Assembly: GCF_026210795.1 (NCBI RefSeq)
Contig: NC_089433.1
Location: forward strand, 3,224,001-3,288,000
Source of the DNA: Rhizophagus irregularis
Taxonomy: Eukaryota
DNA length: 64,000 nucleotides
Direction: 5' to 3'
How positions within the stretch are numbered: the stretch's first letter is position 1; each line of letters begins with the position of its first letter. The notes under the pieces were generated by a model, which did not search any database, had not been told where the DNA came from, and saw nothing but the letters and a program-made list of their open reading frames with translations. Below are positions 24,112 to 56,850 of the stretch, in pieces. Position numbers and translations under genes: made by a program.

Positions 24112-24517
24112 TATAAAGTTTCTATTAATTATTAAATTATTAAAAATATTGTTACTTTTCTTTTTTTTTTACTTTAAATTGAAAAAAGAAAAAGAAAAAA
24201 AAATGTAAGACGTGTAAAATATTTAAGTATTTATACAATTGATCATCAGTTCATCAATAAATTAATAATTATAATTTTCTGACAAATTTAGAAAATAAAA
24301 CAATTACAACAATCATTACGTACATTTTGTTATATTCAATAAAACTTAAAGTGTATTGTTACATTTTACCTTTTACACCATAGTGTATTGTCGCAATTTA
24401 CTATTTACTCCACGGTATACTGTCACATTTTACTTTTTACACCCATTAATAGTTTTCTGCTTCTAATTAATAATTATAATCAATATTGTAGTTCGAAAAT
24501 TTTTAACTTAATAGAAA

Positions 24518-27500
24518 ATGTTTACTTGCCCATTTCAACAATGTCAAAGAACCTTTTCACGTCGACCTGCACTTCGTGAACATACAAAAACACATCAAGG
24601 TCAGGCCTATTGGGAAATATTAAACAGAATTACGGAAAATTCTCATAATATTGTGGAAGATATAAGAGTTGATTATTCTGACGAAAATATAACATTTGAG
24701 ATGGTATTTTTTTAAAAATTTTTTATTTGTGATGTATTTTTTTTTTTTTGATATGATCACAAATGTAATGTAACTTATATTAATTATTTGTACAACGATT
24801 TAATATTATAAAAGGAAGATGAACATGAAGATAATTTTACCGTAAACGAAATTTATGCCATAGATGAACATGATGTAGATGAATATGATGTAGATGAACG
24901 TGATGTAGATAATACTAACGAAATATTAGAATTTGAAGTTGAAGAAGAACCCAATTTTGAACATATCAACAATTATATCTTACGGATTCCTGAAATAACC
25001 TATCAAATAACTTCAATTGATACAAGATCCGTTTCAGATCATAGTGTTCCTCAATTTCCTGATACTGCTTATGCTGAATTTATGAAACTTGTATCAACAC
25101 ATCACTTTTCTAATTCAGCTGGAAACGATATATTAAAGTGGTTTCGAAGACATTATCTCTGAGAAAATGTAATTTTACCAGCAAATACTACACAAGGACG
25201 TGAGTTTGTTAATTCTATGAATATAGAACATTTATTATATCTCAAAACAAAAATATTAGAATATGAAAATGAAGAGTATTATCTTCATCATCGTCCCATT
25301 TTTGATGCTGTTAAAGAACTTTTATCCAATGCTGATATTCTGAAACACTGTCAATGGGATTTTTTACCAGAATATATTGTTAATAATGATGATGGTCATC
25401 ATGAACGTGTATATGGAGAACAATGGTCTGGGATGTGGTGGGAACGTATCCAAAATTTACTTGGAACGAGTGTGAAAAAGGTTTTATCCATAATTTTATA
25501 TTCTGATGCCATCACACTGGACCATCTTGGTAAAAGTTCAGAACATCCTGTTTATTTATCATTGGAAAATATTCCCAATTGGCGTAGAAATAAATGTGAT
25601 GCAAAAGCTTTGCTGGGTTTTTTACCTAAATTAAAACAAATTCACAATCGCAAAGATAATAAAAAAAGTTTTGCATCTGCTAAAAGAATGTTATATCAAC
25701 ATTGTTTTGATATCATGACAAAACCAATCTATGAAAAGTTAGAAAGTGGCTTGGACATCGTAACTGATAATCAAATAATTTGGGCTTTTCCGTTCCTTTC
25801 TGAATTCATAGGTGATCTACCTGAAGATGCTGCATTGACTTTAACTTACAATTCTTCTATATGCAAGCGTCCATGTCATATTTGCACTATCACAATTGAT
25901 GAGTTGAATAAACCTGATTTATCACATTCTCAAATAGAATTGCGAACACCCAATAATATGCAATTTATTCTGGATGCTAATATTTGTCATGAATATTCTA
26001 TTCATCCAACAAAAAATATTTTCTGGAAGTTTCGGTAAGCAATGATGCATTTGATTAATTAATATAAATAAATAAACTAAGTTTTTTTTTTTTGATAGTG
26101 AATTAAACATTTATAGTGCTGCGGTACCAGATCGCATGCACCATTGCGATCTGGGTTTATTTAATTATCAAGTTAATTTTACTCTCAAATATATTCAATT
26201 GCATTGTGGTGAAGAAGGAATTGATGAATTTAATAGACGTTTAGCAGAAATACCACATTTTTCCGGACTCAAATCCTTTAAACATGGTCTTGGTAATATT
26301 GCACGTTTCACAGCAGCAGAATTTCGAAATATGATGAAGCAATTAATTTTCGTTATTGACGGCTTAATTATTGCAAAATATAAGTCAAATTTAAACCAAA
26401 ATCAAGTGAAACAATGTGATAAAAAACTTGTTGATTTATTTTTATCATGGAATAAGATGTATATTTTTAGTCGTAAAGATACCTTTACAGACTCAGAACT
26501 TAATAATTTTCAGGTAAATTTATAATTTTTTAAAGTAATTTTTGAACATGAATATATTATATATGTCTAACTTTAATTTATTATAGGAAATGATTACTGA
26601 CTGGGCAAAAAAATTTCTTGCCTTATTTGCACCAATTGTAGATACTGAAATGAGATATCCAAAATTACACAATTGGTGTTACCATATTGTTACTTCTGTA
26701 CGAGAATATGGAGCAATAAATGGTTTCTCAACTGATACTTATGAATCTTTGCACAAATATTGTGTCAAAATTCCTTACAGAATGAGTAATCGTCGGGATG
26801 CAATTTCACAAATAGTCAAAATGGTATAGTTAATTTTTTAATAGTACATTATGAATTATTATAAATTATTATTATTAATAATTATTTTAAATAATATTAG
26901 GTACGACATGATAGTATTCTTAAATATCTTCAAAGGATAACATCACCTTCACCTTTTATTAAACATCGTCATCGTAGTAGTTCTGTATTAGGAGGATTTG
27001 AAGATAGTTTCGTATTATCTGATTTTAACAAGTTTGTTAATGAATATAAGACTAAACATTTTTTGGCATTTGAAGCTGAGAAGGCATTTGATGTATTAAT
27101 TGATTCTTTAAATCAATATTTCGATATGATTCAAGATATTACTGAAGATGATGTTGAAGCAACCATTATAAAATGGTATACTAATGCATTTATTGGAGGA
27201 ACTGATACTATACGAGCTAAAAGCAACTATTATAATTTACCTGCTTTTAGTAGTATTGCAATTAATATGGATGAAAGAGAAGCTGAAACATATAATACAT
27301 TTAATGGATTATGTTTCGCTAAAGTAAGTTCAAGCTTTATTATTTTGTTTGTTTATTTCTTATTATCAAAAAACTAAATTAATTTTATATAAAATAAAGC
27401 TTTTAATGCTATTTAGCTTAAAAATTCCCGGTCATGAAGAGTAAGAATTAGCACTTATTCAATGGTACGATTTTAAAAATAATAATTCACATAAACTGCT

Positions 27501-27634
27501 TAAATATGATTGCCCGTATATGAAGAGTATTTCAACATTTACCGTTATAGCAGTAGATTCTATTGTTGAACAAGTTCATATTATTCCTCAGTTTGGTAAA
27601 TCTAATGAGTATTTTATAAATTTATTTATGTTTT
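24518..27634 (+). pseudogene. Plavaka-type (CMC superfamily) transposase with N-terminal C2H2 zinc finger
   Basis: C-x4-C-x12-H-x3-H finger (CPFQQC...HTKTH); Plavaka core ERVYGEQWSGMWWERIQ, ILYSDAITLDHLGKSSEHPVYLSLENIPNWRRN, GDLPE, PCHIC, VPDRMHHCDLG, PKLH..YGAINGFSTDTYESLHK. In-frame stops at about 25160 (TGA) and 27442 (TAA). Confidence 0.85.
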
Positions 27635-27944: not shown

Positions 27945-28793
27945 TAAAATTTCCGTCTTTTATCAATGGATTTATTTACGTTTTCTTAATATCCTGATGT
28001 AGGCGAATATGGCAGGGGTCTTTATAATATTCCACTGGTAATAAAAAAAAATATATTAATATATTATTAAAATCAAAAAGTATAAATCTAAAAATCTTAC
28101 CTAAAAAAAAATTTTTGAATTAATTGTGTTGGTTGTATATAAAAAAAATTTTTGAATTAATTGTGTTGGTTGTATATAATCTTCTTTAAACGGAGGTGTG
28201 ACCCGATCATTAGTACAATTTGTCGATGTTCCATGGATTGGTCCCCAACACTTTATACAAATATTCTGAAGTTCTTGTGCTGTAAAAATTATATTCGGAC
28301 AATTTCTGAATCCATGTCCGTAATATAGGCAAATATGGCAGGGATCTCTATAAAATTCCACTGGTAAAATCCAGTTGGTTGTCGGTCAAATTTTTATATC
28401 TTTCGCCGAATAAAGTTGTACTGGTGGTGGAGATGATGATGGCGGAGGCGGAGATGATGATGATGATGACGGAGATGAAGATGGTGGAGATGATGATGAG
28501 GGCAACGATGATAATGATGATGATAATATTGAAGGTGGTGGTGACGATGACGTAAATGATGTCGGTGGTGATGATGATGATATTGACGTTTTTACCATGC
28601 ATAATAACTCATGTATTGTTTTATCCTGATTACAAGTTAATTCATTTATCGTGTCATTTTGAGTGCGTGTTAATTCAACTAAAAAATTTGATAGATTAGT
28701 GATGACTCCAAAGCTTTTATCGATATTATTGAGTATATCTTTTGTAGTAACGTTATTTTCTATGACTGAAAAACTTTCGTTATCTTCAGTCAT
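27945..28793 (-). pseudogene. Ser/Pro-rich protein with two CCHC zinc knuckles
   Basis: ORF 28793-28386 continues in frame past one TGA (KDIKI*PTTNWILPVEFYRDPCHICLYYGHGFRNC...CIKCWGPIHGTSTNC). A 38-bp tandem duplication lies at 28103-28178. Confidence 0.65.
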
Positions 28794-30364: not shown

Positions 30365-30595
30365 TAATTTAAAAATTAAGCAGTATCAAGGAAAATTCTC
30401 GCAAATTTTTCTTGATACTGCCTATTTTTAAAGTTTAAAGACCGATTAGTAACGAATTTAAGAAAAATTCTCACGAATTTTTCTTGATACCGCTTATTTT
30501 TAAAGTTTAAATAAATTGAAATTACGATTTTTTAAGAAAAATTCTCGCGAATTTTTCTTGATACCGCTTATTTTTAAAGTTTAAAGACCGTAAAA
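30365..30595. repeat. Palindromic subterminal-type repeat array (left)
   Basis: Units of about 70 bp containing AAGAAAAATTCTCGCGAATTTTTCTT; inverted relative to the arrays at 35870-36530 and 45200-45660. Confidence 0.75.
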
Positions 30596-31834: not shown

Positions 31835-32327
31835 ATAGTTTATTCTTTTTTTTGGTTTAGGTTAAGACTATAGAACTATGTCCTACGGCTTTTTGTGAGA
31901 TTTTTTTTAGTCAATGATATTGTTCTGACTAATAAATTCGTGTGAAAATTTTTTTTTTAGTGAGAATTTTTGATTTAGTGAGAACTTTTTCTGTTTATTG
32001 AGATTTTTTTTTCGATTTAATGAGAATTTTTTTTATGAGATTGATTTTTTCAATATTATTTCTGACTAATAAATTTGTGAAAAATTTTTTTGATATTAAC
32101 GAATTTTTTTTGTGAGATTGTTTATAATTATATAGATATTTTGTATTAAATCAATAATAAATTTTTTGATAAATCTATATAACTAAAAAAACTATATAAC
32201 TAAAAAAATTTGTCTGACGTTTGGACTAGTTTTATTTGATTATATATAGATTGAAATTCGAAGAAAATAGTACCAACAAAACTTTTTTATTAAAAGTCCA
32301 AAATACATATATATTTTATTAATAAGT

Positions 32328-35300
32328 ATGCCTTTGTGTACGTGTACTCACTGTAAAGCTTTAACAAATGGTATTGGAAAAGAAATTCATAGAACAACAG
32401 TAATTCGTCATATGAAAAAAGAACAAGAGGAGCAAGAACTAGAAAATGCATACCAAAGTCTTCATTCTGAAGAAAATTATTTTGAAGAAAATGAAGAAAA
32501 TGAAGAAGAAAACTCATATGAAGAACGCTCATCTCCTATGGAAATATCGGAAATATCTGACAATGAAGAAATTCTTATAGAGGAAGAAAATCTTACTACC
32601 TTACATAATGATGAGGCTTCTATAGAAATTCTCTCCAATTTTCAAGATGAGGATGAGGAAATTGATGATTACTATCATGAAAGCGATGACTTAAACCATT
32701 ATGATTCTCAAAGTGAATTAGAGTTTAATACCTCTGATGATAAAGAAGGTGAATTTCGAAATAATTATAATAATATTTTAAATTAGTAATTTACCAACTT
32801 TTTTTAGATAATACGACTTTTTCTAATGAATTGTTCGAAGGATTAAGGCTTTTATATGTGAAATCGAATTTTAATTTTTCTGAAGCAGCATTTAATAATA
32901 TATATAAAGCCTTCAATAGAAATAAAATAAGTTTTAATAAAGTAAAAAGAAAGCTTGGTTCAATAGTAGGAATTGAACCAAAAATATACGATATGTGCGT
33001 TAATTCATGTTGTGCATTCGTAGGAGTTTTAGAAAATGAAACAAAATGTAAATTTTGTAAGGAGGATCGATATTATAGTAATGGTAAAGCGAGAAAAAAT
33101 CTACCTTTTATTTCTATAATTGAGCGTTTAAAGCTTCAATTTAAAAACCCTGAAAGATCAAAAGAACTATTATATAGGCACAATTATACTTGTAATAAAG
33201 GAGAATTTGCTCATAATAACATAGGTGACATCTTTGATGGACAGATTTATCAAGAATTATTAAATGACGAATATTTTCCTGATCCAAGAGACATCGCATT
33301 TACTGCATCTTGCGACGGCTACCAAATATTTCGTCAAAAGACTGATGATTGTTGGGTGTTCCTGTTTCTAAATAATAATTTACCTCAAGAATTAAGAGTA
33401 AAGAAAGAAAATTTAATGGTAACTTTAATAATCCCGGGGCCAAAACAACCTCAAGATTTTAATTCATTTCTCTATCCATTAATTCAAGAAATGAAATCCT
33501 TACAAGGTATATTTTAAATAAATGGTACATAATAAATGTAATATTTATTAATAATATTTTTAATATTTACAGATGGAATCTCTTGTTACGATGGTAACAA
33601 AGAGGAACAGTTTACTCTACGTGCTCACATTCTGGCTTGGACCGGCGATATCCCTGCCCTTTCAAAGGTTCTATGTTTAACAGGACATAATTCATAGTAC
33701 TCAGGTTGCAGATTTTGTAATCTTCGAGGGACTTTAAATGAAACGAATAGACATGTGTATTATCCATTGCAACAAAATATTGATCCTAAACGATTACCAA
33801 TTCGAACACATGATGAAATACTGAATAGCACAAATCAAATAGAACGTCTGGAGGGAGATCGTAGAGAAACTTATATACGTGACTGCGGTTGGTCCAATAT
33901 TTTAAAATAAAAATAAATTCTTAGTAATTAATTTTCTCAATTTTAAAAATTTTTTGTTTATTAAAAAAAATTAGGAATTAAAGGAAAGAGTATTTTATTT
34001 GTTTTATCTTCTATAAATTTTCCACGTTCATTTCCAGTAGATATAATGCACCTTTTTTTCGAAAATGTTGCACCCCATATGTTTCGACATTGGATAGGAA
34101 AATTCTATCCAAAAAATAATGAATGGAACTCAAATGAATATACAATAAGTTCTAAAACATGGGTTGAAATTGGTGAAATCATGGAACAAAGTAGATCTCA
34201 TATGCCACCTGATATTGGACGTCCTCCACGCAATATCGTTAAACATTCAGCTGGGTTTAAAGCTGTAGAGTGGGCTAATTGGATCATTTTATTCTTTTTA
34301 CCATTACCTAAAAGGGCGATTGCCGCAAAGGTAATAAAAAAAATCAAATTGTTGGCAGATAAAATAATAAAAAGTCTGCTGATAACATTATTTAACTTAA
34401 AATAATAGTAACCTCTTAGGATGGTCAAGATTTGTTGAAGCTGTCAAGTTATGCATTCAACCTCTAATAGAATTTGAAGAGCTAGATTTAATTCGAAATT
34501 TATTAATAGAATTTTACAATCATTATGCAAAGTAATTTTCTTATGAAATTTATATATGCCTTTTTCTTTAAACGATATTTTAATTGATCACGTGAATTTT
34601 TTTGTGCAATAGTTCATATGGCGTTGGAGGAGAAAGATTACCAGCATTTTTAATTTCTTTTCATTATTTATTACATGTAATAGATTCGATTGAAGACTTT
34701 GGCCCTTGTCGTGGATTTTGGCAGTTTCCGATGGAGAGGTTTTGTGGAATGTTAATTCCACTTGTTAGCTCTCGAAAACTACCATATGTGAATTTGTTTA
34801 ATAATGTGTTGATGCAAGAAAGATTTAAGTATCTGCAACTTTTACCAATATATAATGAAAAAGTTTTTTCCAATTTTAAAGAAAAAGAAAAAAAACATGG
34901 CCGGTGCATAGAGTATATTCTAATGAATTATATGTTCACGAATACGAATTTTATTCACCATTTGTTAATTGTGTATTAACAAAAAATGAAGTCATAAAGT
35001 TAAAGCAATGTTATGCAGCTATATTTCAAAAGAATACTAGCGAAATTACGGTGATTTTATATTATAACTCACATAATAATATGTATAAGAATATTCTTTT
35101 TTAAAAAAAATAATATATAATTTTTTTTATATAGGACATTAAAGAAAACTATGCTAAGTATGGAAAACTTCGTACAAAGGATGGTAATATTATATCATCT
35201 AAGTGGTGGAAAAAAGAAAATGATAGTAGTCGAAATGATTTTTGCGTCGCTGTAAGAAATAAATACCGTATTCATCCGAAAATAAGCAACAACTTTTTCA

Positions 35301-35869: not shown

Positions 35870-36530
35870 ATAAGAAATTCTCGCGAATTTTTCTTAGTGA
35901 TCGCGATTAGTAAATTCGCGAATTTTTCTTAGTGATCGTGATTTAAATTTACTAATCGGTCTTTAAACTTTAAAATAAGCAGTATCAAGAAAAATTCGCA
36001 AGAATTTTTCTTAAAAAATCGTGATTTCAATTTATTTAAACTTTAAAATAAGCGGTATCAAGAAAAATTCGCAAGAATTTTTCTTAAAATCGTGATTTTA
36101 GTTTACTAATTGGTCTTTAAACTTTAAAAATAAGCAGTATCAAGAAAAATTCGCAAGAATTTTTCTTGAAATCGTGATTTTTAGTTTACCGTATACGGAA
36201 TTTATTTTTATTTTTTTTTTTTACCGTATACGGAATTTAATATGGAATTTATTTATTTTTTTTTTTAATACGGAATTTATAAAAACGTATATCAAATATA
36301 TATAAAACGTATCATTTCCATATACAGATTTCTTATAGTTTGAACTTAAAATAATCAGACCTAAAAATTCAACGATATTAAGGAAAATACTCGTGAATTT
36401 TCTTAACAATAGAACTTTAAAGATTAATAATCATGACTTTAATTTACCAATCAGATTTTGAACTTTAAAATTAAGCAGTATTAAGAAAAATTCTTGTGAA
36501 TTTTCCTTACTAATCAGGGTTTGAAGTTTA
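35870..36530. repeat. Palindromic subterminal-type repeat array (inverted relative to 30365-30595)
   Basis: Units TTTAAACTTTAAAAATAAGCRGTATCAAGAAAAATTCGCAAGAATTTTTCTT. Confidence 0.75.
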
Positions 36531-37459
36531 AATTAAAAATTCTTTTGTAAATTTGACGATTTTCAAATATCGATTATTAGAGGAGCGTCTTTATATTAGT
36601 TTAATCAAAAATCAATTTATCATAGATGGAATTGAAATTATTATATTTATATTAAAATTTATGGTTAAAATTTAATAGAATAAAGAAATAAAAGATAAAA
36701 CGAATGAAAAAACGAATATAAAAATTTATTATTAGTTTAATTAAAAATCAATCATCAGCAAGTTTTAAACAGGCATATAAAGTGTTGAAAAACACCATGT
36801 GTTGCTCAACGCCAAAAAACGTAGGGAAACGAACCCTTTGTCAATCAACACCACTTAAAAATGTTTAAAAACGTGTAAAACAACACCCATTTAAGTGTAA
36901 AGCTACACATAGTAAAACAACGATAGTTTAAAAACGCGTATACAATGTATAAAAACGCGTATATTGATATTAAAAACACGTATAGCAACGGTAGCAATGG
37001 TATTTTTTAGTCATCGTACGATAGTTAACTTTAATTGTAGTATTAGTAATTTATTAACATATATATTATTGTATATTATTAACGTGTATATTTTAAAATT
37101 TTTAAATTGTAAAACATTGTAAATTTATTTATAGAATACAGTACAATACAAATACAATATCTAATCATGTAAAATTGTAAAAATTCATCCTCTTGTTATA
37201 ATTGGATTGCCGCGGATTTTTAAGCGATCAACGTACTAAAATTCCGTTGACATAGCGCCCCTGGTGACACAACCATAACAAGGTGGAAATATGAACTTTC
37301 CCTCGATAATTATATTAATATTATGCTCCTTCATGATAAAAATCAAAACCAAATCTCGTCGTATGTGTCTTAACAACATCAAGTGGTTTAATATTCACAT
37401 TGAGGATTGAGGAATTATCTTCCATTATTCATTCGCTCAAGGGTCGAAATAACCATCAA

Positions 37460-39900
37460 GCTGACCTACAAAAGAAAAATCCAGAGCGCCGAAAAGAAAA
37501 TCTAGGCCTACAAAAAAAAGAGAAACGTTCAGTTAGAACGTTTCTTAAAGAATAAAATTAAAAAAAATAATTAAAAAAATGTAAGTTTCGAATATCGAAA
37601 CTTACCATATCAGCATATCCAAGTCCCAAAGCCAAAAGAATCGATACCTACAAAAAGAAAAGAGAAAATTAAAAAAAAATAAAAAAAATAAAAATAAAAA
37701 ACGTGTTTTATTCAAAACTTACTGATTCTTTAGGTTTTCCGTTCTTCGGAAGCCCACCCGAACCTATAAAAAAAAATACAAGAACGGTTAGTTAACCGTT
37801 CTTAATAATAAAAAAATAAAAAAAAGTTAAGATTCGTACCATACCTTACGAATCTTTGGGTTTTCCGTTCTTGGGAAGCCCACCCGAACCTATAAAAGAA
37901 AAAAGAAAGAACGGTTAGTAAACCGTTCATAATAATAAACAAAGAAAGAAAAAAATAAAGATTCTTACGAATCTTTGGGTTTTTCCGTTCTTGGGAAGCC
38001 CACCCGAACCTATAAAAGAAAAGAAAGGAACGGTTAGTAAACCGTTCCAAAATATTAAAAAAAACAAAAACCAAAATTCGTACTTGTACTTACGAATCTT
38101 GGTTCTCCCGTTTGTCCGAAGTCCACCCGAACCTAAAAAAGAAAGGAACGGTTATTAGTAACCGTTCATAATATTAAAAAAAAAAAATAAAAAAAACAAA
38201 ACCAAGATTTGTATATACTTACGAATCTTGGTTCTTTTCCGTTCTTCGGAACCAGGAAGCCGCCCGAAACCTAAAAAATAGAAGTAAAGAACGGTTATTA
38301 GTAACCGTTCATAATATTTTTTTAAAAAAAAAACAAAAAAAAAACAAAACCAAGATTTGTATATACTTACGAATCTTGGTTCTTTTCCGTTCTTCGGAAC
38401 CAGGAAGCCGCCCGAAACCTAAAAAAAGAAAAGAACGGTTATTAGTAACCGTTCATTAATAATATTAAAAAAAAAAGAAAAAAAAAATTAAACCAAGATT
38501 CGTACTTATCTTACGAATCTTGGTTTTCCGTTCTTCAGAACTCAGAAGCCCACCCGCTGACCTAAAGAAGAAAGGAAAAAAAAATGAAAAAAAATTACGA
38601 AACGTTAATAAGCCGTTTCGTTAAAAAATGTAATAAAAAAAAATCGAACGCTTAGCCAACGTTTCGATTAAAGAAAAAAATCAAAAAAGTTTCGAAACGT
38701 TAAAAACGTTTCGTTAAAAATGAAATACAAAAAAATTGGAACGTTAGCCAACGTTCCGATTAAGAAAAATAAAAAAAAAATGTATTTTGAAACGTTAAAA
38801 AGCGTTTCGTTAAAAAAAATGAAAAATAAAAAAATCGGAACGTTAGACAACGTACTGATTAAAGAAGTTAAAAAAAAAAGAATAAATGAAACGTTTTTCA
38901 ACGTTTCGTTAAAAAAGTAAAATAAAAAAATAATCAGAACGCCAATGTTCTGATTAAAAAAATTAAAAAAATTGTTTCGAACGTTAAAAACGTTCCGATT
39001 AAAAAAAAAGAAAAAAAATATTTTCAAACGCTAAAAAACGCTTCGCTAAAAATGAAAAATCGAACGCTTAACCAACGTTCCGATTAAAAAAATAAAACAA
39101 ATATTTCAAACGCTAAAAAACGCTTTCAAAATAATTTTAATGAAAAATCGGAACGCTTAGCCAACGCTCCGATTAAAAAAATGAAAAAACAAATATTTCG
39201 AACGTTGACAACGCTCCGATTAAAAAATAAAACAAATATTTCAAACGTTAAAAAATGTTTCAAAATATTTTAATGAAAAATCGGAACGTTAGCCAACGTT
39301 CGATTAAAGAATTTTTTAAAAAACAATATTTCGAACGCTTTTCAACGTTCCGATTAAAAATGAAGTAAAAAAATTAATCAGAAGCGTTAGCCAGCGTTCC
39401 GATTAAAAGAATTTAAAAAAAAATAATATTTGAACGTTTTTCAACGTTCCGATTAAAAATGAAATAAAAAAAATAATCAGAACGTTAGCCAACGTTCCGA
39501 TTAAAAGAATTTTTAAAAAAAATATTTTGAAACGTTAAAAAACGTTTCGTTAAAAAATGAATAAATAGTTTCGCAACGTTTTGTTGCGAAACTCACCAAA
39601 CTTTTTTCCGTAAAAGGCTCATATCTCTGGAATTAATGACCTTATATTACGGAATTTATCCACTTATTACATTTTCTGTGAATGGATCTGTGAAGGCTCA
39701 TTTTTACGGAGTTTTTATAGAAATAACGGATAAAACTTTTATAAAGGAAAGGGGAGAAAGGGGAGAACGAAAGGGAAAAGAACGAAACGAAAGGGAAGGG
39801 GAGAAATAAAGGGTAATGGGAAAATAAAAGGGAAGGGGAGAACGAAGGGGAGAACGAAGGGGTAATGGGAAAACGAAAGGGAAGGGGAGAACGAAGAAAA
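37460..39900 (-). other. Predicted spliced micro-exon transcript (ncRNA or short basic peptide)
   Basis: Pyrimidine-rich first exon ending at 39597, then exons 38515-38561, 38371-38418, 38223-38270, 38094-38132, 37969-38009, 37850-37889, 37723-37763, 37606-37647, each bounded by TAG and GTAAG. Confidence 0.6.
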
Positions 39901-39902
39901 GC

Positions 39903-39998
39903 AAAAAAAATTAAGCTTTGCTAAAAAAAGCTTAATTTCTTTTTTTGCTATACCGCAGTCCGCAGCGGTAATCCAGTATCACGTGATACATGTGATAT
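39903..39998 (-). promoter_or_regulatory. Conserved palindromic block upstream of the micro-exon array (copy 1)
   Basis: AATTAAGCTTT..AAAGCTTAATT, TACCGC..GCGGTA and TATCACGTGATACATGTGATA; shared with 50088-50202. Confidence 0.55.
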
Positions 39999-40557
39999 AG
40001 AGTACGGCCATTATAGTATTGCCGAAATGATTTTTTTTTTAAATACTAATTTTAATAAATGTATATTATACTTAAATTAAATAGTACAGTGGTTAGATCG
40101 TGAGATATGATATTGTAAGTTGAGGTAACCGGTTCGGTTCCTAAGGTGAGTAAAAATAAATAAATAAATATAATTTAATTAAAATATACACATGTAATCA
40201 TATATATGCGTTAATATACAGTGCGTTGAACAACAATGCATAATGTGTTGCACTACAAATTAGAGTTGAACGACGCGTATATTAACATTATGCGCTGATA
40301 TACTCCAATATATGGGTGTTGATTAATATTGTTAATCATGTTGAACAACTAGCTGGTGTTGATCAACGCGTATACTGGTGTGAATCAACGCTTTTCAAAC
40401 TTGCTGATGATAGATGGAATTGAAATTATTATATTTATATTAAAATTTATGGTTAAAATTTAATAGAATAAAAAAATAAAAGATAAAACGAATGAAAAAA
40501 AATGAATAAAATTTTAAAAAGAAAAAATTTTAAAAAGAAAAAGAATTTAAATTCATT

Positions 40558-42478
40558 TTATGTATTATAAATTTTATTTAACTTTTCAATTCTTTTTCTT
40601 TTGGCTTCATTCTTAAAGGCTTTGTATAACCGTTTCCCGTCAAAACGGGAAACCAGTTGGTTCGTTCTTACTAATTCCAGCCACCTTTCAAAATTTACCA
40701 CTCCTATTTTTTTTGCGGTAAATAGGTAAGGATCTAAATCTGAAAAGGCATAAACAATATTATAATTATCTGATGCCATTTCCAGTAATCTTTTAGCTCT
40801 CACCGCCTTGTTTAAAATTGTAGATATAGTGGTAGCCTTTAACCGTGGTGCTATTTGATCTGGTAATTTTGATGATTTTTCGATCATCGTAATAACTTGA
40901 GATTTAATAGTTTCCCCTTTGTTTCGCTCATAATTTATACTGCAATAAATTTCGAGCCTTTCATAATATTCTAAGAATAAAATGAGATGCTGAAATTGCC
41001 GGCATCTTAGAATTTCAGTGGATACTTGATCTTTTAATGATAGATCGTATATGTTTAATATAATATTTGTTATTGCCGTACAGGCCAATTTTTTCTTATT
41101 TTCAAATTCTCGTGAGTCAGATAAATTGACCAATAAACTAGGATCATTTATTTCGGCAATAATATCCTGATTTATTATAGGATCATCCGGGCTTATGATT
41201 TGGTGATCCAAACTTCCTTCGCCAGTCTCTTCTTTTTCATCATTTAAAATATAGCTTATGGAAGCTCTTTTAGAAGAAACTTCAATGAGCACGAATTTGT
41301 CAATGTTAGTTGAAAAAAATTCATCCACACTGGCGATTTTGGATAAATGGTCAATAAGAAAATAATGATATTCTTCTTTATTTGGAATATCGTTATTATT
41401 CGTTGGAGGGGGGGTTGGAAGTTTATGGATATTATTGAGGAGGATGTGTAAATGACGTCCCATATTAATTGTCGATTCCGGAATACTATGGTTCTCTTCC
41501 TCATTCACTTCCTCGTCTTCTTTCTTGCCTATTTCCTCGCCTATTTCCTCGCCAAAGATTAACTGATCTTCCTTTCTTTTCTCTTCCTCGTCTTCTTTCT
41601 CATCTTTTTCTTCGCCCAGGATTAACTGCTGATCTTCCTCTCCTTTCTCATCCTCGTCTTCTTCCTCGTCTTTTTCTTCGCCCAGGATTAACTGCTGATC
41701 TTCCTCTCCTTTCTCATCCTCGTCTTCTTCCTCGCCTTTTTTTTCACCCAGGATTAACTGCTGATCTTCCTCTCCTTTCTCATCCTCGTCTTCTTCCTCG
41801 TCTTTTTCCTCGCCTAGAAATAACTGATCTTCCTCTCCTTTCTCATTCTCTTCGTTTTCCTCTATATCCATTTTTTCGTCAGGAGCTATCTTTTCTCCGC
41901 CATCGTCATGGATTATCTTATCCTCTTCGTTTTCCTCTATATCCATTTTCTCACCATCCTCGTCAGGAACTACCTTTTCTCCACCATAGTCATGAATTAA
42001 CTGATCTTGCATTTCCTCATCCTCCTCACCCTCCTCATCCTCAATAATATCAATTGTTTTATCACTTTCATAACCGTAGTGATAAACATCATCTTCTGTT
42101 ACTTCACCATCATTATCATTAATATTATCTTTATTGTGATCTATATCAACGACTGGTACCTGAAATTTATGACCGTTTGGCAATTCTAATAATATGCTAG
42201 ATTCGTCGATAATTGCTTTTTTATAACCACATTCTTTTAAAAATCTTTGTGTCTTTAGTATTGACGACAATAATTCTATTATATATACAATAAAATATTT
42301 AATTATTTACTATATATAATAAATAAATTAATAAATGCAATAAAAATACTTTTATACTTGCTTTATTATTATCGCCTTTTTCTGCTATGAATGTAGAAAT
42401 ATCAGACGTCGCTGCTGCACTTGTTCCTGCAAGTGAAGAATCAGACATTTTTGATGGAATGAATGGAATGAAAGACAT
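40558..42478 (-). CDS. Hypothetical protein with acidic 22-aa repeats and a helical C-terminal domain; probable transposon cargo or accessory gene
   Basis: 570-aa open frame plus a likely first exon (ATG 42478 or 42448, intron about 42357-42276); 66-nt tandem units at about 41550-41850 (GEEKDEEEDEDEKGEEDQQLIL). Confidence 0.7.
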
Positions 42479-45199: not shown

Positions 45200-45660
45200 C
45201 AAAGTCCGAATAATCAAATTCTTGCGAATTTTCTTAAATTAAACAGTAGATCGGACTTTAAACATTAAAAAATAAGCAGTATTAAGAAAAATTCTCGCGA
45301 ATTTTTCTTAAATTAAGCAGTAGATCGGACTTTGAACATTAAAATTAAGCGGTATTAAGGAAAATTCTCGCGAATTTTTCTTAAATTAAGCAGTAGATTG
45401 GACTTTGAACATTAAAATTAAGCAGTATTAAGGAAAATTCTCGCGAATTTTTCTTAAATTAAGCAGTAGATCGGACTTTAAACATTAAAATTAAGCAGTA
45501 TTTTGCGCTTTAAAAATTAAATACTATTAAGAAAATTTTGCGCGAATTTTTATTGATGATCGTAATTTAAATTGGACGTTAGTAATAAGAAAATTTTACT
45601 GATCAGGGTTTGTACTTTAAAAAAATTTATTAAGGAAATTATCCCGAATTTTTATTAATG
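45200..45660. repeat. Palindromic repeat array, units of about 73 bp
   Basis: AAGCAGTATTAAGGAAAATTCTCGCGAATTTTTCTTAAATTAAGCAGTAGATCGGACTTT in at least four copies; same family as 30365 and 35870. Confidence 0.8.
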
Positions 45661-47935: not shown

Positions 47936-48749
47936 CACTAGTCGAAATAAGAAATTTCGGACATGTGACTTTCGGCTAAGTTTCGGAATAAATTTCAGCC
48001 AAAATTCGTCTGAATTTAATTTCAGCTTAATTTCGACTCACATGATTTCTGAAGTTTTATTCTGAAGTTCTTCTGAAGTTCTTCTAATGTTCTGATTTTT
48101 CAAAGTTCTGATCATTATATAAAACTCGGTTTCCGAAATTTATTATGAACAAGTGACACTTATGTAAAACTCAAAAAAAAAGAATTTATGTAAAATCCAA
48201 TAAAAAGCAACAACTTCCGTCAAATTTCAACTAACAAAAATGAAGATTTATTATTATTATTTTTAACAAATGTTAAATTTTCTATTAACAGGATTTACGG
48301 CCAAATATTCTCTCGCATTTTTCCTATCCAAAATTTTATATTTTATTGGCACCATCAGTAAGATTTTGGGTGGTGTATACTAGCGTTAATTAACGCCAAT
48401 TGACACTAGTGTAGTTTAATGCTTTAAAATGTAGAAAAACTAACCCTATAATGACTGATACTATCAAAATACGTGTATAAAAATGCAGTTTAGTGTTAAA
48501 CAACACGTATCATGTGTTAGTTGATTTGTATTGTACAATACACACATAGTATTGAAAAATACATTTATTTACATGTATATTTTAGTTGAAAAATGCATAA
48601 AAAAGTGTTGATTTACACATTTATTTACATGAAAATATGCATTTTTTATCTAATTATTTAACTAATGTAAATATCTAATATAGATCTATATATATGAAAT
48701 AAGTTTTCAAAAGTAAACTCAAAAACAATTGTGCTTACAAAAAATAACC

Positions 48750-50085
48750 TCCAGTTTCCAGGTACCGATTTAAAGCCCTTTTGCCGGGTAATCTAATATC
48801 TTGCTTTGAAATCATAAAAATTCTATTTAAACCTACAAAAAAAAGAAAAAAAAACATTAAAAATAATAATAAAAAAAATAAAATAAAACAATCTCATAAA
48901 GAAACTTACTGTTTAGTTCCAATACAGTGAATACACTTTGAAACTTCAGGACCTATATAATAAAAAAAAAAGAAACATTGAATAAGTTTTTTATGAAGAA
49001 AAATAAATAAGTTTCGTTTCAAAATTCGAAACTTACCATCCAAAACCAATTGAAGGCGGAACTAACTAAATAATAATAAAATAATTCGTTTCGCAACAGA
49101 ATGTTGCGAAACTTACAGTCCGAAAATTCCCAACACGTTCCGGTTACAAAAAAAAGTAAAATAGAAATGTTAACTAACGTTTCTAAAATAAAATGAAAAA
49201 AAATTTATTTCACAGCGGGACGTTGTAAAACTTACAATTCAAACGTTTTTAGCGCGTTCCTGATCCGAGGTAACACTTTGATCCTACAAAAAGGATAAAG
49301 GAGACGTTAGCAAACGTTTCCTAATAAAAATAAAAAAATATATTTTAAAGTTTCGAAGTGAAACTCTTCGAAACTTACCTTCAATCTGAAACCAAAACTT
49401 TCTCGAATCTTGGATTTGAAACTGTATACCTAAATAAATAAAAGAAAAAGGAAATGTTAGTAAACATTTCCTAATTTAAAAAAAAATCAAAAAATTAACA
49501 GAAGTTTCATAACGAAATGTACGAAACTTACCGTTTCAGAACCCATATCCAATACTGAATATTTAACTCTATAAAAAATAAAGGAGACGTTTAGTTAGAA
49601 CGTTTCCTAATAAAAAAATTTTTTTAAAAAAGTTTCGAGATAAATGGCTCGAAACTTACCATTCCGTTTCCTCTAAAATTGAATATGCCAAAAGTACTAC
49701 AAAAAAAAAATTATGGAAACATTAGTAACGTTTCCTAATAGAAATTAAAAAAAAAATTATTTAAAAAAAGTTTTGAGGTGAATGCCTCAAAACTTACCAT
49801 TTCGCCCGAAGTACAACAATGGTCCTACAAAAAAAAACCAAAGGAACGTTCCCTCATAAAATTAAGAAAAAAATAACTTTAAAAAAAAGTTTCGAAGCTT
49901 TCGCTTTGAAACTTACTATTTTGGAAATGGGAAAACGAATAAGAAAAGGGGAAAAAGGGAAGGGAATAACGAAAGAGGAGAAGGGGAGAACGAAAACAAA
50001 AAGGGAAAGGAGATAACGAAAGAGAAGGAGAAGGGGAGAACAAAAAGGGAAAGGGGAGAACGAAAGAGAAAAAAGGAAAGTCGTG
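48750..50085 (-). ncRNA. Predicted spliced non-coding micro-exon transcript
   Basis: Pyrimidine-rich first exon ending at 49917, then exons 49798-49824, 49660-49696, 49532-49568, 49379-49429, 49236-49283, about 49117-49143 (acceptor mutated), 49037-49061, 48910-48952. All donors are GTAAGTTT. All three frames hit a stop within the first three micro-exons. Confidence 0.55.
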
Positions 50086-50087
50086 AG

Positions 50088-50202
50088 AAAAAAATTAAGC
50101 TTTTGCTAAAAAAAAAGCTTAATTTTTTTTTTCGCAATACCGCAGCACTGCAGCAGGCGCAGCGGTAATTATTAATCCAGTATCACGTGATACATGTGAT
50201 AT
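50088..50202 (-). promoter_or_regulatory. Conserved palindromic block upstream of the micro-exon array (copy 2)
   Basis: Same three palindromes as 39903-39998, including the E-box TCACGTGA. Confidence 0.55.
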
Positions 50203-53200
50203 GTAGATTTATATAAATAAGGGGCTTTTTCCTGAAATTTTTTTTTATATTTTTTTTAATAGATGTATATATGTGCTTATATATACATATATATATATCT
50301 ATTAACTTTAATACTTTACGAAAAGCCCCTCCTCTATAAATAGGTAGAGGTCATAAAGTACCTATAGGGGGAGAACTATTGCTGCTCCCTCTGCCTGTTT
50401 TATAGTGATAAAAAGAGGGAGTCTTCAGTAGTAAGGTTTGATGTGTATTTATACACATTAATTAGTAATATTAAACAACACAATAAACTACACCTAGTAT
50501 TAAAAAGTATGTATAATGTTAAAAAACACTAATAAAAATGGTTGTATTTCTATACTAAATTGCAGTATAACAAACTTCGTATTTATATATATTGCTTATT
50601 GGCATTTAACAATATGTTAAACTACATTTGTGTTGAAAAATATGTATAGTATTAATAAATGGTAATAACAACTAGTGTATTTTTATACTAAATTTTAATA
50701 AAACAACATTTTGTATTTGTTTACATTGATTGATGGCATTAAACTACATTGCATATCATATTGAACTATACTTGACATCAAACAACATAAAAAAACTTGT
50801 ATAATTATATGTATATAACAGCATTCAGTATTAATCATTACAGTATACAGTATTAAACAATAGGATATATCATATTAAACAACTTCTTAATGTTAATTAA
50901 CACTAAAATTATATAAAGCAACACTTTTAAAACTTGCTGATGACAAATCTACTGAGAATATTATGCACTGGAATTATGCAATCTCGACCTTCAGGGTAAA
51001 ATTCAGTACCCCAAAGTTCGACATTGCAAATTTCATCGTCTTCAATACTGAAATAATAACGAGAATTCGCTGGTTGATACCATTGAATGAATGCCAAATT
51101 ATGTTCCAATTCTCCATCCGGTAAGTCAACCTTGTGAGAAAAAAAGAATTGAACTTGTCCGGGATAACAATCAACGCTACCGTCTTGTGTTATAAATTTG
51201 GCTAAAATATACGAGTTCTTTACGTGTCGAGCAAACATATTTGACCCAAATGTCTCTGAACTGATTCTACATCTACCGAACTGTTTCATTTTGACGGAAA
51301 TGATCTTTGAATTCTCATGGCCTTCTCTGAATGGCTTTTGAAACTCAAGTGTTTCATAAGTCGCCAAATAGTATTCGACCAGTAAATCAAGCATTGAATT
51401 TGATATCACTACATTTTCAGAGGCGGGACCCAACATTTCACCTGGAAATGACTCGCTTCCAGTGACTATTGATTGTTGAATATTTCGCGAATTCAACCAA
51501 AATCGTTTTATTTCATCGGCTGAAAATTCGTCAACCTCTGCCAAGGATCCAACAAAAGTTCGGTTATTGAGAAGTTCTAGTCCCCTTACATTTTCTCCAG
51601 AATTTATAATACTATCAATGTGGATATCAGCCATCATTCGTCGCATAATTTCCAGTTCTATTTTCCTATGGCTATTTGGTAAGACGCCTAAAATTTAAAA
51701 TTACGATTACGCATAAATTAAGAATAAGAATATTAAACCTAAATAAATAGTTATAGTTTACCTAATATACCATTCATGCGTTCGAAGGAGAAACACCAGA
51801 ATGCGTATAAAGGTCCAAAATCATACGTACATTCACTCAAATGAAATGAAAGATGGAAATTAGGAGTAATTTTATTTCGTCCATAATGTTCCTCAATGAA
51901 CTTCACAATTTCAATCAATTTCTCATGCGATTCTCTCATAGCATCAAGTTCTAAAATTTGACTTACGAAAGCTGTACAAACTCTCACAAAATGATGGAGA
52001 ATTTTCTGATCATGTACCGAAAGGTGACTCCATAGCGATACTGTAGCATAAATTGTGAAAAAGATTTGCCATTGATCTGCTGTAAAATTTGAAAATCCTT
52101 CTCTGCAATGGATTTTCCCAGGGATTCGTCCCAAATCGGATGGAATCTGAAACTCATCCATTTTTTTTTGAATTTTTATAAACGATTGTTGGTTTAAAAT
52201 TCCTTCATCAACCCAAATTCTTTTCACTATCCATCTCACAATGCCTAGAAATAAGCAGTACATTGGATTGACAACAATGAACCTTATAGGGTCGAAGTAT
52301 AACAACCACAATAATTCTGACCATCTAACTCCAGTATCTTTCGTAAAATGTTTTCGTGAAGCATTAGAGTTACAACGTCGCCATTCATGTGCATTTTCAC
52401 GAAACTCGGCCAAATCTCAAGTAACAAACCATTCGTCTATATTGTCTATCCTGGCGAAATTATTTTGTCGATTCTCATAATTTGCTCGTTTTTTGCACCA
52501 GTGACATAATGCAAGCGCTAAAATATGTCCGCATATCTTCCTTACCACGGGAACATCACACAAAACTAGTACTAAAACTGCACGAATATTTTTTCCGTTT
52601 TGGCATTCAAATGTTCGATTTAGAGTTATTCCACTCTATAGTAATTCTAAATCATTGACAATTGGTGCTAAATAGTGATTGATTTGGTGTAAGCTCACTT
52701 CGTTAGGACCTGGTAATATTCTGAGAATTAATAAATTTTCTCTTTTAAATCAAATGTCTCGAGGCAAGTTTCAAATGGCGACATATATCACACCGGTGCT
52801 GTGAATTGTCCCTTCATAGGGTTGGAACCAATCCACATTCAGCATTAGACCGAGGTGTGAATCTGCAACTTTAGGCCGGAAAAAATTAGGCGAATCATGA
52901 TAAGAAGTATCCTTAAATGTTTACTACACTTGACCATCGTAAATGTCAGTCAATATATTTTCAGAATGTAATCGATCGGACCAATGTCTGAGTGACCTTT
53001 CGAATTCTGATCGAAGATATAGGGTTGCTAATTGTTGACGAATTGTAGAAAATGGATAAATCATCTCAATTCAATTTGACATTCTATTTAATAATCTTAT
53101 TTGATGAGATAAAGGAGTTTGGCACTTCTGGCGTCTTGATGAATTTGGAAATTCGATATGTTGACATTTCATAATGGCAAGAATTTCATCTTGACGAAAC

Positions 53201-54789
53201 TCCTCTACTTCTTGTTTGTTGTATAATTTGTGACACTTCGTACATGCTGCAAAGCAATGAAATCGATCTTCTATGTTGAGAATATTTCTCGCTTTATATA
53301 AAGTGACGGGAAAATTTTCAAATGCAGTATCGCCAATTTCATCCAATAACAGTTTTATGAACTTTATTAGTGATTCAGTTGCTGTTTCTGGAATGTTAAA
53401 TCTCATTCGAAATTTCATAATCCATATTAAAATCCATAAAAACTTATTATCATCGCTAGTTGGAGTTGGAGTGACATCTGGGTCTTGATATGGTTCGAAA
53501 GAAGGGCATGAATAATCTTCAAAAGTTTCAGATTTGTTATTTTCCGATTCGTCATCTCCATTCAATTCGTTATCATTAGTGTCTTCGCTTTGATCTTTGG
53601 CCATACTTTCTCTCAGTAATAAATCTTGTTCGATGTTACTGATGTTACCAATGGAAACTCTAGTCAAATATACCTTGATCTACGTCTTTGAGGCAATCGG
53701 TCAACTCTTTGCTCATTTAAAATAGTCAATTGAGATGATTCATCATTAATATTTTCAGTATTTTCCAAAACTTCAGATGGTTCATTATCCCAAATTTCAG
53801 TATTTTCCAAAACTTCGATAGTTCGTTATCCCGAATTTCAGTATTTTCGATAATTACTTCTGAAACATCTGACGAAAGTTGGCTTGATAATTTATGTCAA
53901 TTCTTTGTGCGAGGAGCAACTAATATTCCTTCGCAATCGCTACAGAAACAGGGTACTTTATGAATTCTTGGCTGAATGATTGATCGAGTAGTAACTCGAG
54001 GTGATCTGGTAGTAATAGGATTTTCATCAAGTACACTAGATATCGTTCTTTTTCGTCCCATTTTGTCAAAAATTTCAGATAATTTTGATAATTATGGAAT
54101 TGTATCGAAATTTGTTTCGATTCAATAATTATCATATAATTGTTACTAGTGAAGTTTCGACTAATGAATTTTCAACTTGAGCGATCAACTTAAAAGTGAT
54201 TTATCGAATTCTCATCAAACTTTATGAATTTTCCATTAACTTTAAGTGATGTATTGAATTCTCATCAAACTTTACGAATTTTCCATCAACTTTAAGTAGG
54301 ACCCCGGAAAATGCTTATATATGTAAGGTACCAAGGTGCTTAGCCAACATAGTAAAGTTTTATGATGTAAGAATTTTATAATGCTTAATTTTAAGAAAAT
54401 TTTATACTATGTAAGATAATTAAATTGCATATTTTTGGTATTATTTTAAAATACTAAGAGTTTTTAGTTGCTTATTTTTCATATTTATATAACTTTTTAA
54501 AATATTATATATTGAATTTATAATTAATTTTTATTTTATTTTCACTAACGGTGAGTGTTAATTTTGTACTACATTTCACAATTTTATATAAATACATAAA
54601 CAAAAATTTTTTTTTGATGAAATTTCATTTTTTTTTTCAATGTTTTATTAATTATCTGTCAATAGTATCTTTTTAATTTTTATTAAACTCAGTGTATTAT
54701 TTTTAATATAAAATTACTGTATTATACATGTTTATTTTGTTAAATAAAATTACTATAAATATGTTTTACTTTAAAATATAATTTCACTA

Positions 54790-55330
54790 CTCACCACTTT
54801 GGTTATATCAAATTATCTTTTATGCTTAAGTAAGTTTGTTCAGCAAGTTAAATCTACTTGTATTTTAATTTTCATAAGGCTAAGTATGATATTTATATAG
54901 AAAAGCATATTTTTTTTAACGGTAATAACTTTTAAATTTTTCACTTTTTCGTTTATAACTTCAGAGCGTAATTACACCACTTCAGTCAAATGAAATTGAC
55001 TTTCTAAATTAATTGAAAGTTGTTCAGCAAGGTCGAAACTACTTATATATTAATTTTCATGAGTGTGGGTATAATACTTATGGAGAAAAGTGCATTTTTC
55101 ATAACGGTACTAACTTCCGAATTTTTCATTTCTCCGTTTACAACTTCAGAGCGTAATTACACCTCTTTGGTCAAATGAAATCGACTTTCTAAATTAATTG
55201 AAAATTGTTCAGAAAGGTTGAAACTACCTACATATTAATTTTTATGGGTGTAAGTATAATACTTATGGAGAAACTTACATTTTTTGTAATAGTATTAATT
55301 TCGAATTTTTCTTTTACTGTTTATTAACTT
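54790..55330. repeat. Tandem repeat, unit about 183 bp, about three copies
   Basis: AACTTCAGAGCGTAATTACACC at about 54957 and 55142; TGTTCAGMAAG at about 54837, 55021 and 55206. Confidence 0.8.
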
Positions 55331-55524
55331 TATTAATTGAATATTGTTAATCTACTTGTATATTATGTTTAGTTTAGCTTCACAACATATTTAAAATTGG
55401 ATTTAATAAAATATATTAATTAATAAATATATTTTATAAATTATATGTGTTATAATAAAAATTTAATTAGGTTAGAAGATTGATTTGCTTATTTTTATAT
55501 AATTTTTAAGGTTAGATATCAACA

Positions 55525-56850
55525 ATGCTTAGCGATCATAGTAAAAACCTATGCTTAGAGCTACTAATAAAAAATATTTTTGGGATCTTACCTATATAAG
55601 TATTTTCCGGGGTCCTATGGAAGTGGTGAGAGAGAAGTCAATGTGGTTGTTGAAGTTGCTAAAACTAGTGATGAAGACGGAGATAATAGCGAACAATTGA
55701 TAAATAAAAACTCATTAAGTAATCAAGATGTTGATATGATAGAAGTCCCTGGGAACGCTGAAGAATGTGTCCAGGAAGCAGGTTATGAGGTTATTGAAGT
55801 TGCTAAAAAAACTAGTGATGAAGATGGAGATAATAGCGAACAATTGATAAATAAAAACTTATTAAGTAATCAAGATGTTGATATGATAGAAGTCCCTGAG
55901 AACGCTGAAGAATGTGTCCAGGAAGGAGGTTATGAGGTTATTGAGGTTGCTAAAAAAACTAGTGATGAAGATGGAGATAATAGCGAACAATTGATAAATA
56001 AAAACTCATTAAGTAATCAAGATGTCGATATGATAGAGTTCCCTGGGAACGCTGATGTATGTGTCCAGGAAGCAGGTGATGAGGTTGGTAAAATGACCAA
56101 AACTAGTTATTTGTGTCCAGTATACAATAATAGAGGTACCGATGAAGAAAACATGTTTGGCGAACAAATGGTAAACAATAACTCTGAAAGTAATGAAGAA
56201 GATGTAATTTTATTCAAAAATGCTTTCATTAGCGAATACTATGATGACGTAGAAAGTAGTTTTAATGCATTAAATATTACAAATGATTATAATATTTGGC
56301 CTCAATATACATCGTTAAATGCTGTTGAATTGTCACAAAGTCACGAGCTTTCTCATTTTGAACATCAAGTTCATTCGTCTACTTATTTACAACTATCTGA
56401 AATGTACGATTACGGTGATAATTATTCACAAAATATTGATTTATCGTTACGTGATGAAAGAAAATCATTAGATATAAACAAATCTTTAAAATTGTCTAAA
56501 AAACTATTGAAAGAAACAGAATTAAAAGATTCGATTATTTCTGTTGCTTATCCTAAATATAGAAATTCTGAAAATTTAAATTATTTAGAGAATAATAATT
56601 TTTTAAACATACTTGAAAATTGTTTAATTGCAGAAATCAAATCAGAATCACAAAAATGCGAATTATTATTAAATTATTATAGGACTGGGGCATATTTAAA
56701 TAAAGTATTAGAAGACTTAAAGAACGAGTTATCTGATATATCTGAAATTATTGAACGAAATATATGTACTGCTATAGTCGACAATTTTAAGTTCCGTAAA
56801 ATGATTTCCGAAAAATAAGTTTTTAATATATGCAGGGTTATACGTAATTA
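55525..56850 (+). pseudogene. Hypothetical protein with three 49-aa acidic repeats; frameshifted start and premature stops
   Basis: 412-aa frame 55580-56818 with 147-nt repeats; ATG 55525 joins it only with a 1-nt shift in a T run near 55577-81; similarity to the 47236 ORF continues past the TAA (EK*VFNICRVIRN* versus RKFVYDCKKARNF). Confidence 0.6.

Follow-up and report, generated by a model that had tools for sequence, protein, structure and literature searches.

Within the window, i.e. the whole 64,000-nt stretch of DNA analysed here, a minus-strand array of nine predicted introns and eight intervening micro-exons is carried by a DNA transposon (element 1) that interrupts a host transposase gene. 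That the array is transposon-borne had been proposed in a preliminary description of the locus, and is borne out by the element boundaries, the GT duplication at the target site and an empty site in the public run X17. The carrier and the ORF it interrupts comprise:

48353-50942, minus: element 1, a 2,590-bp non-autonomous PlavakaB-type DNA transposon with CATCAG..CTGATG ends and GT on both flanks
50930-50942, minus: left terminal inverted repeat of element 1
48353-48365, plus: right terminal inverted repeat of element 1, matching the left repeat at 11/13 positions
50943-50944, minus: target-site duplication GT, upstream copy
48351-48352, minus: target-site duplication GT, downstream copy
50927-52416, minus: host CACTA/EnSpm-like transposase ORFs, split by element 1 near the C-terminus, with one intron (51761-51688)
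48263-48352, minus: severed C-terminus of the host transposase ORF; the same tail is found in P0004, P0018 and P0096

The empty site consists of a 48350-50943 joint in three X17 contigs, with two letters that fit either side. Beyond element 1 the host transposase frame picks up again, with a tail as in intact homologs; the named homologs among the 120 matches listed are all from Rhizophagus irregularis, which makes an arbuscular mycorrhizal fungus the probable host. While a Pfam scan of the three host ORFs themselves returned no match, a weak DUF4218 signal, under the Pfam cut-off, was present in four of eight homologs, which fits a CACTA/EnSpm-like ORF. In the available text of PMC12730594, PlavakaB is defined by 5′-CATCA..TGATG-3′ termini and 2- or 3-bp target duplications, and a row of its supplement has the Plavaka-11_AB consensus beginning CATCAGCAA. 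Such termini are present at element 1 and at a related copy, element 2, together with 2-bp duplications (GT and AT, respectively). Since the ORF list holds no Plavaka transposase ORF with C(2)C and H(3-4)H motifs inside element 1, we file the element, by its ends alone, as a non-autonomous PlavakaB derivative.

Element 2 lies 8 kb from element 1 and carries an array of its own:

36753-40409, minus: element 2, 3,657 bp, non-autonomous and related to element 1, whose ends it shares; AT target duplication
37508-39596, minus: element 2 array with nine donors and near-identical tandem exons; the donor stem spans the exon-intron border
37764-37849, minus: element 2 intron 7, 86 nt, exactly excised in an X18 contig

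The two arrays have their head in common, namely a CACGTG-containing palindrome, a GC hairpin, an A/U hairpin and pyrimidine repeats. Three hairpin motifs have 28 matches in the window, every one of them within the two elements, which make up 6,247 of the 64,000 bases. The first predicted intron of element 2 (38562-39596, minus) contains at least 14 branch-type hairpins in tandem, with T tracts between them and no exons. Upstream, element 2 is adjoined by a 582-aa ORF with glutamate-rich repeats and no Pfam match (40558-42306, minus), and ~128 nt from upstream of the element recur ~15 nt downstream of it.

Elsewhere in the window, a fragmented Plavaka transposase gene with a frame-breaking stop occupies 24500-27620 on the plus strand (Pfam PF18759, E 7e-35 at 25163-26038); CATCAG occurs near 24245 and CTGATG near 28000, and matching 2-bp flanks were not found by eye. 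A fragmented CACTA-type transposase lies at 32271-34979 (plus; Pfam Transposase_21, E 1.6e-10), and three ORF pieces at 8945-10132 (minus), 14118-14441 (plus) and 18579-19743 (plus) resemble cytochrome P450 exons. A 73-bp tandem repeat with an internal palindrome (45229-45554) has related copies near 30370-30590 and 36380-36500. Finally, a pair of 38-nt inverted repeats (89%) spaced 1,245 nt apart at 54297-55617, possibly another non-autonomous element, is followed by a 415-aa ORF with 147-nt repeats (55571-56818).

From its upstream end, the array of element 1 parses as follows:

50075-50205, minus: upstream block common to element 2, with CACGTG-containing palindrome, GC hairpin and A/U hairpin (hairpins z -4.3)
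49917-50074, minus: repeat tract rich in pyrimidines, predicted first exon with a provisional start
49825-49916, minus: predicted intron 1, 92 nt; donor hairpin, branch stem without its loop
49798-49824, minus: micro-exon, 27 nt
49697-49797, minus: predicted intron 2, 101 nt; both hairpins
49660-49696, minus: micro-exon, 37 nt; relative in locus L020
49569-49659, minus: predicted intron 3, 91 nt; both hairpins
49532-49568, minus: micro-exon, 37 nt; part of public gene model P0121
49430-49531, minus: predicted intron 4, 102 nt; both hairpins
49379-49429, minus: micro-exon, 51 nt; part of public gene model P0121
49284-49378, minus: predicted intron 5, 95 nt; both hairpins
49236-49283, minus: micro-exon, 48 nt
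49144-49235, minus: predicted intron 6, 92 nt; acceptor TAA, weak stems, decayed
49117-49143, minus: micro-exon, 27 nt
49062-49116, minus: predicted intron 7, 55 nt; donor hairpin, no branch stem
49037-49061, minus: micro-exon, 25 nt; exon type also in L004, L007, L035 and L036
48953-49036, minus: predicted intron 8, 84 nt; unspliced in an X18 contig
48910-48952, minus: micro-exon, 43 nt
48833-48909, minus: predicted intron 9, 77 nt; no hairpins
48569-48832, minus: predicted last exon with a provisional end; AATAAA occurs at 48625 and 48569

The minus-strand donors, each with the 8-mer GTAAGTTT, start at 49916, 49797, 49659, 49531, 49378, 49235, 49116, 49036 and 48909, and account, inside 1 kb, for nine of the 15 minus-strand GTAAGTTT sites in the 64-kb window. 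Together with the parsed intron and exon ends, of which those of introns 6 and 7 were placed by hand, these positions agree with the nine introns, eight short segments and segment lengths first described. U2 intron signals (GT donor, branch motif, pyrimidine tract, YAG) are counted as present in element 1: eight of the nine introns end in TAG and one, intron 6, in TAA, the single mutated acceptor that had been noted before, and five have a clear branch motif. Three introns match a donor-to-branch pattern for which 100 shuffles gave an expectation of 0.00. This copy seems to be decaying, to judge from its TAA acceptor and from the lack of branch stems in introns 7-9. The upstream block matches element 2 (39998-39755) at 72% over 271 nt by BLAST and is likely the promoter and transcript start. 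At intron 5, public contigs fuse other upstream sequence to the array, with loose ends at 49379 in X18.

Related arrays were found by scanning metagenomes with a pattern that did not require the donor stem. Ten of the 37 loci returned are related arrays, the other 27 being chance matches without array features; a scan of viral DNA gave two matches, both by chance. The ten loci represent about six independent contexts, given that a single contig contains both L030 and L031, that L029 shares 99.6% identity with L031, and that L021/L026 and L035/L036 form near-duplicate pairs. Two of them (L007 and L031) terminate in the same terminal repeat as the elements. Parsing the two elements and eight of these loci (L029 and L030 omitted) yielded 88 donor units, of which seven were dropped (three L026 duplicates, three non-array donors and one truncated unit), leaving 81. 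In L021 (1-2107) and L026 (1-1293), long, almost donor-free runs of acceptor plus exon (a T tract, TAG and a short GC-richer piece) stand upstream of three hairpin introns, and both arrays continue into other exon-like sequence.

Within element 1, the exons are as unlike one another as background (identity 0.48 versus 0.46 after shuffling), while the introns are related (0.64 versus 0.54). The preliminary description had called the exons unrelated and unique; the former holds within this copy, the latter does not, given that two of the eight have relatives in other arrays. The 37-nt exon 49696-49660 matches an exon of L020 (p=0.005; eight tested), and the 25-nt exon 49061-49037 is of a type that recurs in four other loci (p about 0.003-0.005; eight tested); one further exon is borderline (p=0.02) and five have no detected relative. 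Against the rest of the window, nothing clearly exceeds chance, the longest exact matches being 10-13 nt as compared with null maxima of 13-15. Seven exons of element 2 form one family of mean identity 0.72 (0.49 shuffled), and the largest exon family has ten members, five of them in a single locus. Comparison across arrays shows three exon types in the same order, 81-100% identical, next to introns of 71-100% identity.

The ordered exon types and tandem copies argue for inheritance and tandem duplication rather than spacer capture. This bears on the earlier repeat-spacer-like reading, in which the exons would be captured foreign pieces acting as guides. The mutually unrelated 25-51-nt exons of element 1 and the fusion of intron 5 to other upstream sequences in public contigs would suit such a memory, but the conserved exon order between arrays, the tandem near-copies in element 2 and the lack of any exon match clearly beyond chance in the rest of the window do not. 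The exon paralogy already largely refutes the idea, and we regard it as scarcely tenable.

The array is non-coding, as had been proposed. When the internal exons of element 1 are spliced together, the three frames hold two, five and two stops, in line with the earlier observation of stops in every frame. Exon substitutions fall on the codon phases without bias (7, 8 and 5), and homologous exons differ in length by 1 nt, which breaks the frame. The features of a micro-exon protein gene (an open spliced frame, frame-preserving exons and codon-phase constraint) were thus absent. Nonetheless, public gene models treat the locus as a gene, and one might read the array as a micro-exon gene for variable peptides: in the NCBI model P0121 (79 aa), four internal exons from element 1 are linked exactly and in frame, 27/61 exon lengths are divisible by three, and the spliced exons of element 2 are stop-free in two frames (P=0.01 versus shuffles; one of seven arrays tested). 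However, P0121 skips the other four internal exons, starts upstream of the shared block and forms a one-member cluster. It was also the single match of a protein query with the element 1 exons, at an E of 2.2, accepted because the four exons map exactly. A protein search with the read-through frame of element 2 gave nothing at E <= 1. We read P0121 as a gene-prediction artefact, albeit one indicating that the introns look real to a predictor, and consider a peptide-coding role highly improbable. Two further candidates were rejected: exons as hairpin RNAs, with only 4/61 at z <= -2, and a structured spliced product, whose fold (z -1.65) was equalled by 15 of 100 exon-order permutations.

The conserved part of the array is the intron, and in particular the stems around its splice signals. 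Donor regions folded at z <= -2 in 53/81 array donors versus 4/96 donor-like control sites elsewhere in the window; in element 1, six of nine reached this value against dinucleotide shuffles. Counting paired donor bases (at least four) failed as a discriminator (65/81 in arrays, 67/96 in controls), so that only the z-score separated the two sets. Eight of the nine element 1 introns have at least 6/8 Watson-Crick pairs at +3..+10, the number of introns in which the donor had been described as entering a stem. The accompanying claim that most branch points sit in a second stem stands with five of nine (introns 2-6), barely a majority. In element 2 the donor stem is unlike that of element 1, as the exon end pairs with the intron start, and the branch stem is GAACGGTT/AACCGTTC as against GAAACGTT/AACGTTTC. 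The family thus has two unrelated stem designs, each burying the donor. The branch adenosine, for its part, is predicted to take part in pairing, at the apex of the branch stem. The stems may also gate splicing, a further option named in the preliminary description.

Stem sequences differ while pairing is kept, as proposed from element 1. Among 26 hand-picked long donor stems (of 75), 93% of cells are paired and 5/12 pairs have changed on both sides; among 50 distinct branch stems, the corresponding values are 91% and 5/9, the double changes in the latter mostly reflecting one subfamily switch. No shuffle out of 500 reached the covariation score of either stem, a score whose tallies count sequences, not events, and are inflated by relatedness. 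Departures from Watson-Crick pairing comprised 11 G-U and 12 A-C in the branch stem and 17 and 8, respectively, at donor positions +9 to +14. As this is not clearly skewed, the data cannot tell a role of the stems in RNA from one in DNA.

Public sequencing runs were used to look for splicing. Runs X17-X20 are represented by contigs, which show presence, not absence, and the RNA label of X18-X20 is a guess. X17 covers all bins of element 1 and looks like DNA. In X18, the host transposase intron 51761-51688 is spliced out at CT..AC, so this run likely contains RNA. The same run contains a joint at 37761-37848 (cut +2, CT..AC) that corresponds to the predicted element 2 intron 37849-37764; among contigs of X15, X18, X19 and X20, which are presence-only data, this spliced joint appeared in X18 only. 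Both X18 and X19 have element 2 contigs in which exon-end letters run into exon-start letters without the T-rich intron, and X18 also has intron-containing element 2 contigs. For element 1, intron 8 and the next exon are unspliced in X18, with 0 differences over 146 nt; none of the contigs from X17-X20 has a joint at its nine introns, coverage in X18-X20 being patchy (19/30, 6/30 and 8/30 bins). The exact element 2 joint and the unspliced forms make it likely that the family is transcribed and at least partly spliced. The splicing proposed earlier is thereby supported at the family level, through one element 2 intron exactly excised in a probable RNA run. At 37755, 37964 and 38508, probable RNA contigs pass from an exon end plus GTAAG directly into exon-like sequence; this GTAAG may be a second donor five bases downstream.

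Could the array be a repeat maintained at the DNA level instead? It would then be an internal minisatellite of palindromic units, with splicing the leftover of one ancestral intron and without a role, and with hairpins that favour slippage and are restored to perfect pairing through template switching, or that bind an element-encoded protein. Such an origin would accommodate the G-U and A-C departures, which show no strand bias, the tandem hairpins of element 2 intron 1, the acceptor-plus-exon repeats with few donors in L021 and L026, the concentration of CpG in introns (observed/expected 2.68, versus 1.20 in the window) and the 8-mer GTAAGTTT that the terminal repeat and the donors have in common. 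Yet a neutral repeat should lose its splice consensus as fast as its exons, and the consensus is kept (G at -1 in 55/61 stem-bearing donors, G at the exon start in 48/61) while exons decay to background. Moreover, the inner stems alter their sequence and retain their pairs, which is unfavourable to a sequence-specific binder, and an exact splice joint exists in element 2. On balance we think a purely DNA-level repeat rather unlikely.

The donor 8-mer lies within the terminal repeat CATCAG[CT]AAGTTT, and in L031 units some 3′ arms of donor stems resemble the right terminal repeat over 10 bases. We rejected the donor hairpin as a plain terminal-repeat remnant, as the donor -1 is G, not A.

The excised, structured introns might themselves be the product, as in a snoRNA host or a source of stable intronic RNA, the exons being waste and the introns serving as protein decoys or cofactors. 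Compatible with this are the conservation of introns against diverging exons, the two stems conserved in each intron, the pyrimidine-rich first exon and the absence of a special fold in the spliced exons. However, a C box was found in 0/74 introns, CUGA in 3/74 and both in 0/74; a loose H/ACA pattern occurred in 5/74, and mirtron-type pairing of the intron ends in 0/74. Rfam gave no match at the gathering score, the 13 sub-threshold matches at E <= 10 being treated as chance, and the conserved bases are mostly the splice signals themselves. The snoRNA-host-like reading of the preliminary description therefore did not hold, and introns as the product appear unlikely in general.

We tentatively favour, as the best explanation though at somewhat short of even probability for the whole, a non-coding, multi-intron transposon cargo that originated by tandem duplication, is under selection for its intron architecture and perhaps serves as an anti-silencing mark. 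The structural part is very probable; the anti-silencing step is speculative, and we would sooner doubt than accept it. Under this model, transcription would begin at the upstream block. The exons of element 1 would have arisen by tandem duplication of one exon-plus-intron unit, followed by divergence almost to background, and long-term selection would act on intron architecture instead of exon sequence. Splice signals and stems appear to have outlasted exon sequence over many module duplications, which points to selection on intron architecture during the spread of the family. An autonomous Plavaka transposase would mobilise the element, and the array might keep it out of host silencing.

For a non-autonomous element, the simplest benefit of such a cargo would be the avoidance of silencing. 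By way of analogy alone, intron-containing transgenes in human cells resist HUSH silencing, even where the introns stay unspliced, according to the available part of PMC8770142, and some PlavakaB families carry TET/JBP genes proposed for escape from methylation or silencing (PMC12730594, available text); HUSH is a human system, and its analogy to a fungus is limited accordingly. An anti-silencing role is harder to reconcile with stems on splice signals, which should impede splicing: in Cryptococcus, transposon transcripts that splice poorly are a source of siRNA (PMC5851062, available text), and that would harm the element.

Alternatively, the array could be a spliceosome trap for RNAi: the hairpins would stall splicing, and the stalled transcripts would give rise to siRNA, which would either keep the Plavaka family in check or titrate away the silencing machinery. 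Besides the route described in Cryptococcus, the unspliced forms in probable RNA runs, the production of transposon small RNA by R. irregularis (10.1101/2021.03.30.436303, available text) and the depletion of stems from splice-site intervals in yeast (PMC12350175, available text) are consistent with a trap. On the other hand, the last of these sources also finds stems near yeast splice sites uncorrelated with the spliced fraction; the Plavaka transposase region of the window (about 24500-27600) has no such hairpin motifs as a target; and a self-silencing cargo would be hard to retain in a spreading non-autonomous element. We hold the trap to be quite improbable. Much the same improbability attaches to a new class of cargo, a gene that yields nothing but the act of splicing or the hairpin introns set free by it, and that mycorrhizal PlavakaB elements would use, through RNA, to counter silencing or to assist transposition. 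In that case each intron RNA, given that the donor 8-mer equals part of the terminal repeat, might in addition be bound by the transposase or base-pair with the element ends.

The family forms a natural series of dozens of introns with stems on donor and branch point in two unrelated designs. With such a series one can test directly what the stems do to splicing (obstruct it, slow it or promote it) and whether carrying introns alone benefits a transposon. Of the transposable elements of R. irregularis, some two-thirds have no assigned class (PMC11075540, available text), and one such family is now defined by its ends and its unusual cargo. The arrays can also mislead gene predictors, one public 79-aa "hypothetical protein" (P0121) having been stitched from array exons; if this is common (a single case is known), mycorrhizal gene counts include orphan genes that encode no protein.

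Several known systems resemble the array in part. snoRNA host genes such as GAS5 and U22HG have short non-coding exons, conserved introns and a pyrimidine-rich 5′ part, as does the array; the latter differs in lacking C/D or H/ACA RNA and an Rfam match, in being transposon-borne, and in that what is conserved are splice signals in stems. Introner-like elements (PMC3609843) and sister stwintrons (PMC8469720) are, in the text available for each, likewise families of similar introns with stable predicted structure and compensatory changes, the introner-like hallmark that the array introns also display. Introner-like elements, however, insert singly at new positions in unrelated genes (PMC3609843), and sister stwintrons have terminal inverted repeats of 45-55 nt (PMC8469720), whereas the array introns are 55-103 nt long, contain two short local stems, stand in tandem within a transposon and are copied with an exon. 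Schistosoma micro-exon genes, as portrayed in the accessible part of PMC10526429, are also chains of very short exons, but they encode secreted proteins and have long introns, while the array has no coding signal and short introns. With HUSH (PMC8770142) and SCANR (via PMC5851062) the array would have in common that intron content or splicing efficiency decides the silencing of a mobile-element transcript; these are host surveillance systems, and the available text of both papers describes no intron-only transposon cargo.

The closest likeness is in the ends. PlavakaB shares with element 1 the 5′-CATCA..TGATG-3′ termini, the 2-bp target duplication and a fungal host (PMC12730594, available text), and Plavaka is reported to be prevalent in R. 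irregularis strains (PMC11075540, available text). Element 1 differs in having neither a transposase nor a TET/JBP gene and in carrying a non-coding exon-intron array as its cargo. Array-type cargo goes unmentioned in the available portion of PMC12730594, and the main text of PMC11075540, as far as available, does not contain the terms intron, exon or non-autonomous; nor is such cargo mentioned in the accessible text of the R. irregularis papers PMC10234402, 10.1101/2021.03.30.436303 and PMC11075540. The literature searched, which misses most subscription journals, contained no description of transposon cargo of this form, and repeat libraries in paper supplements may hold the family as an unclassified consensus. 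Thus, the ends place the family with PlavakaB, a known kind of element, while its intron-array cargo is apparently new.
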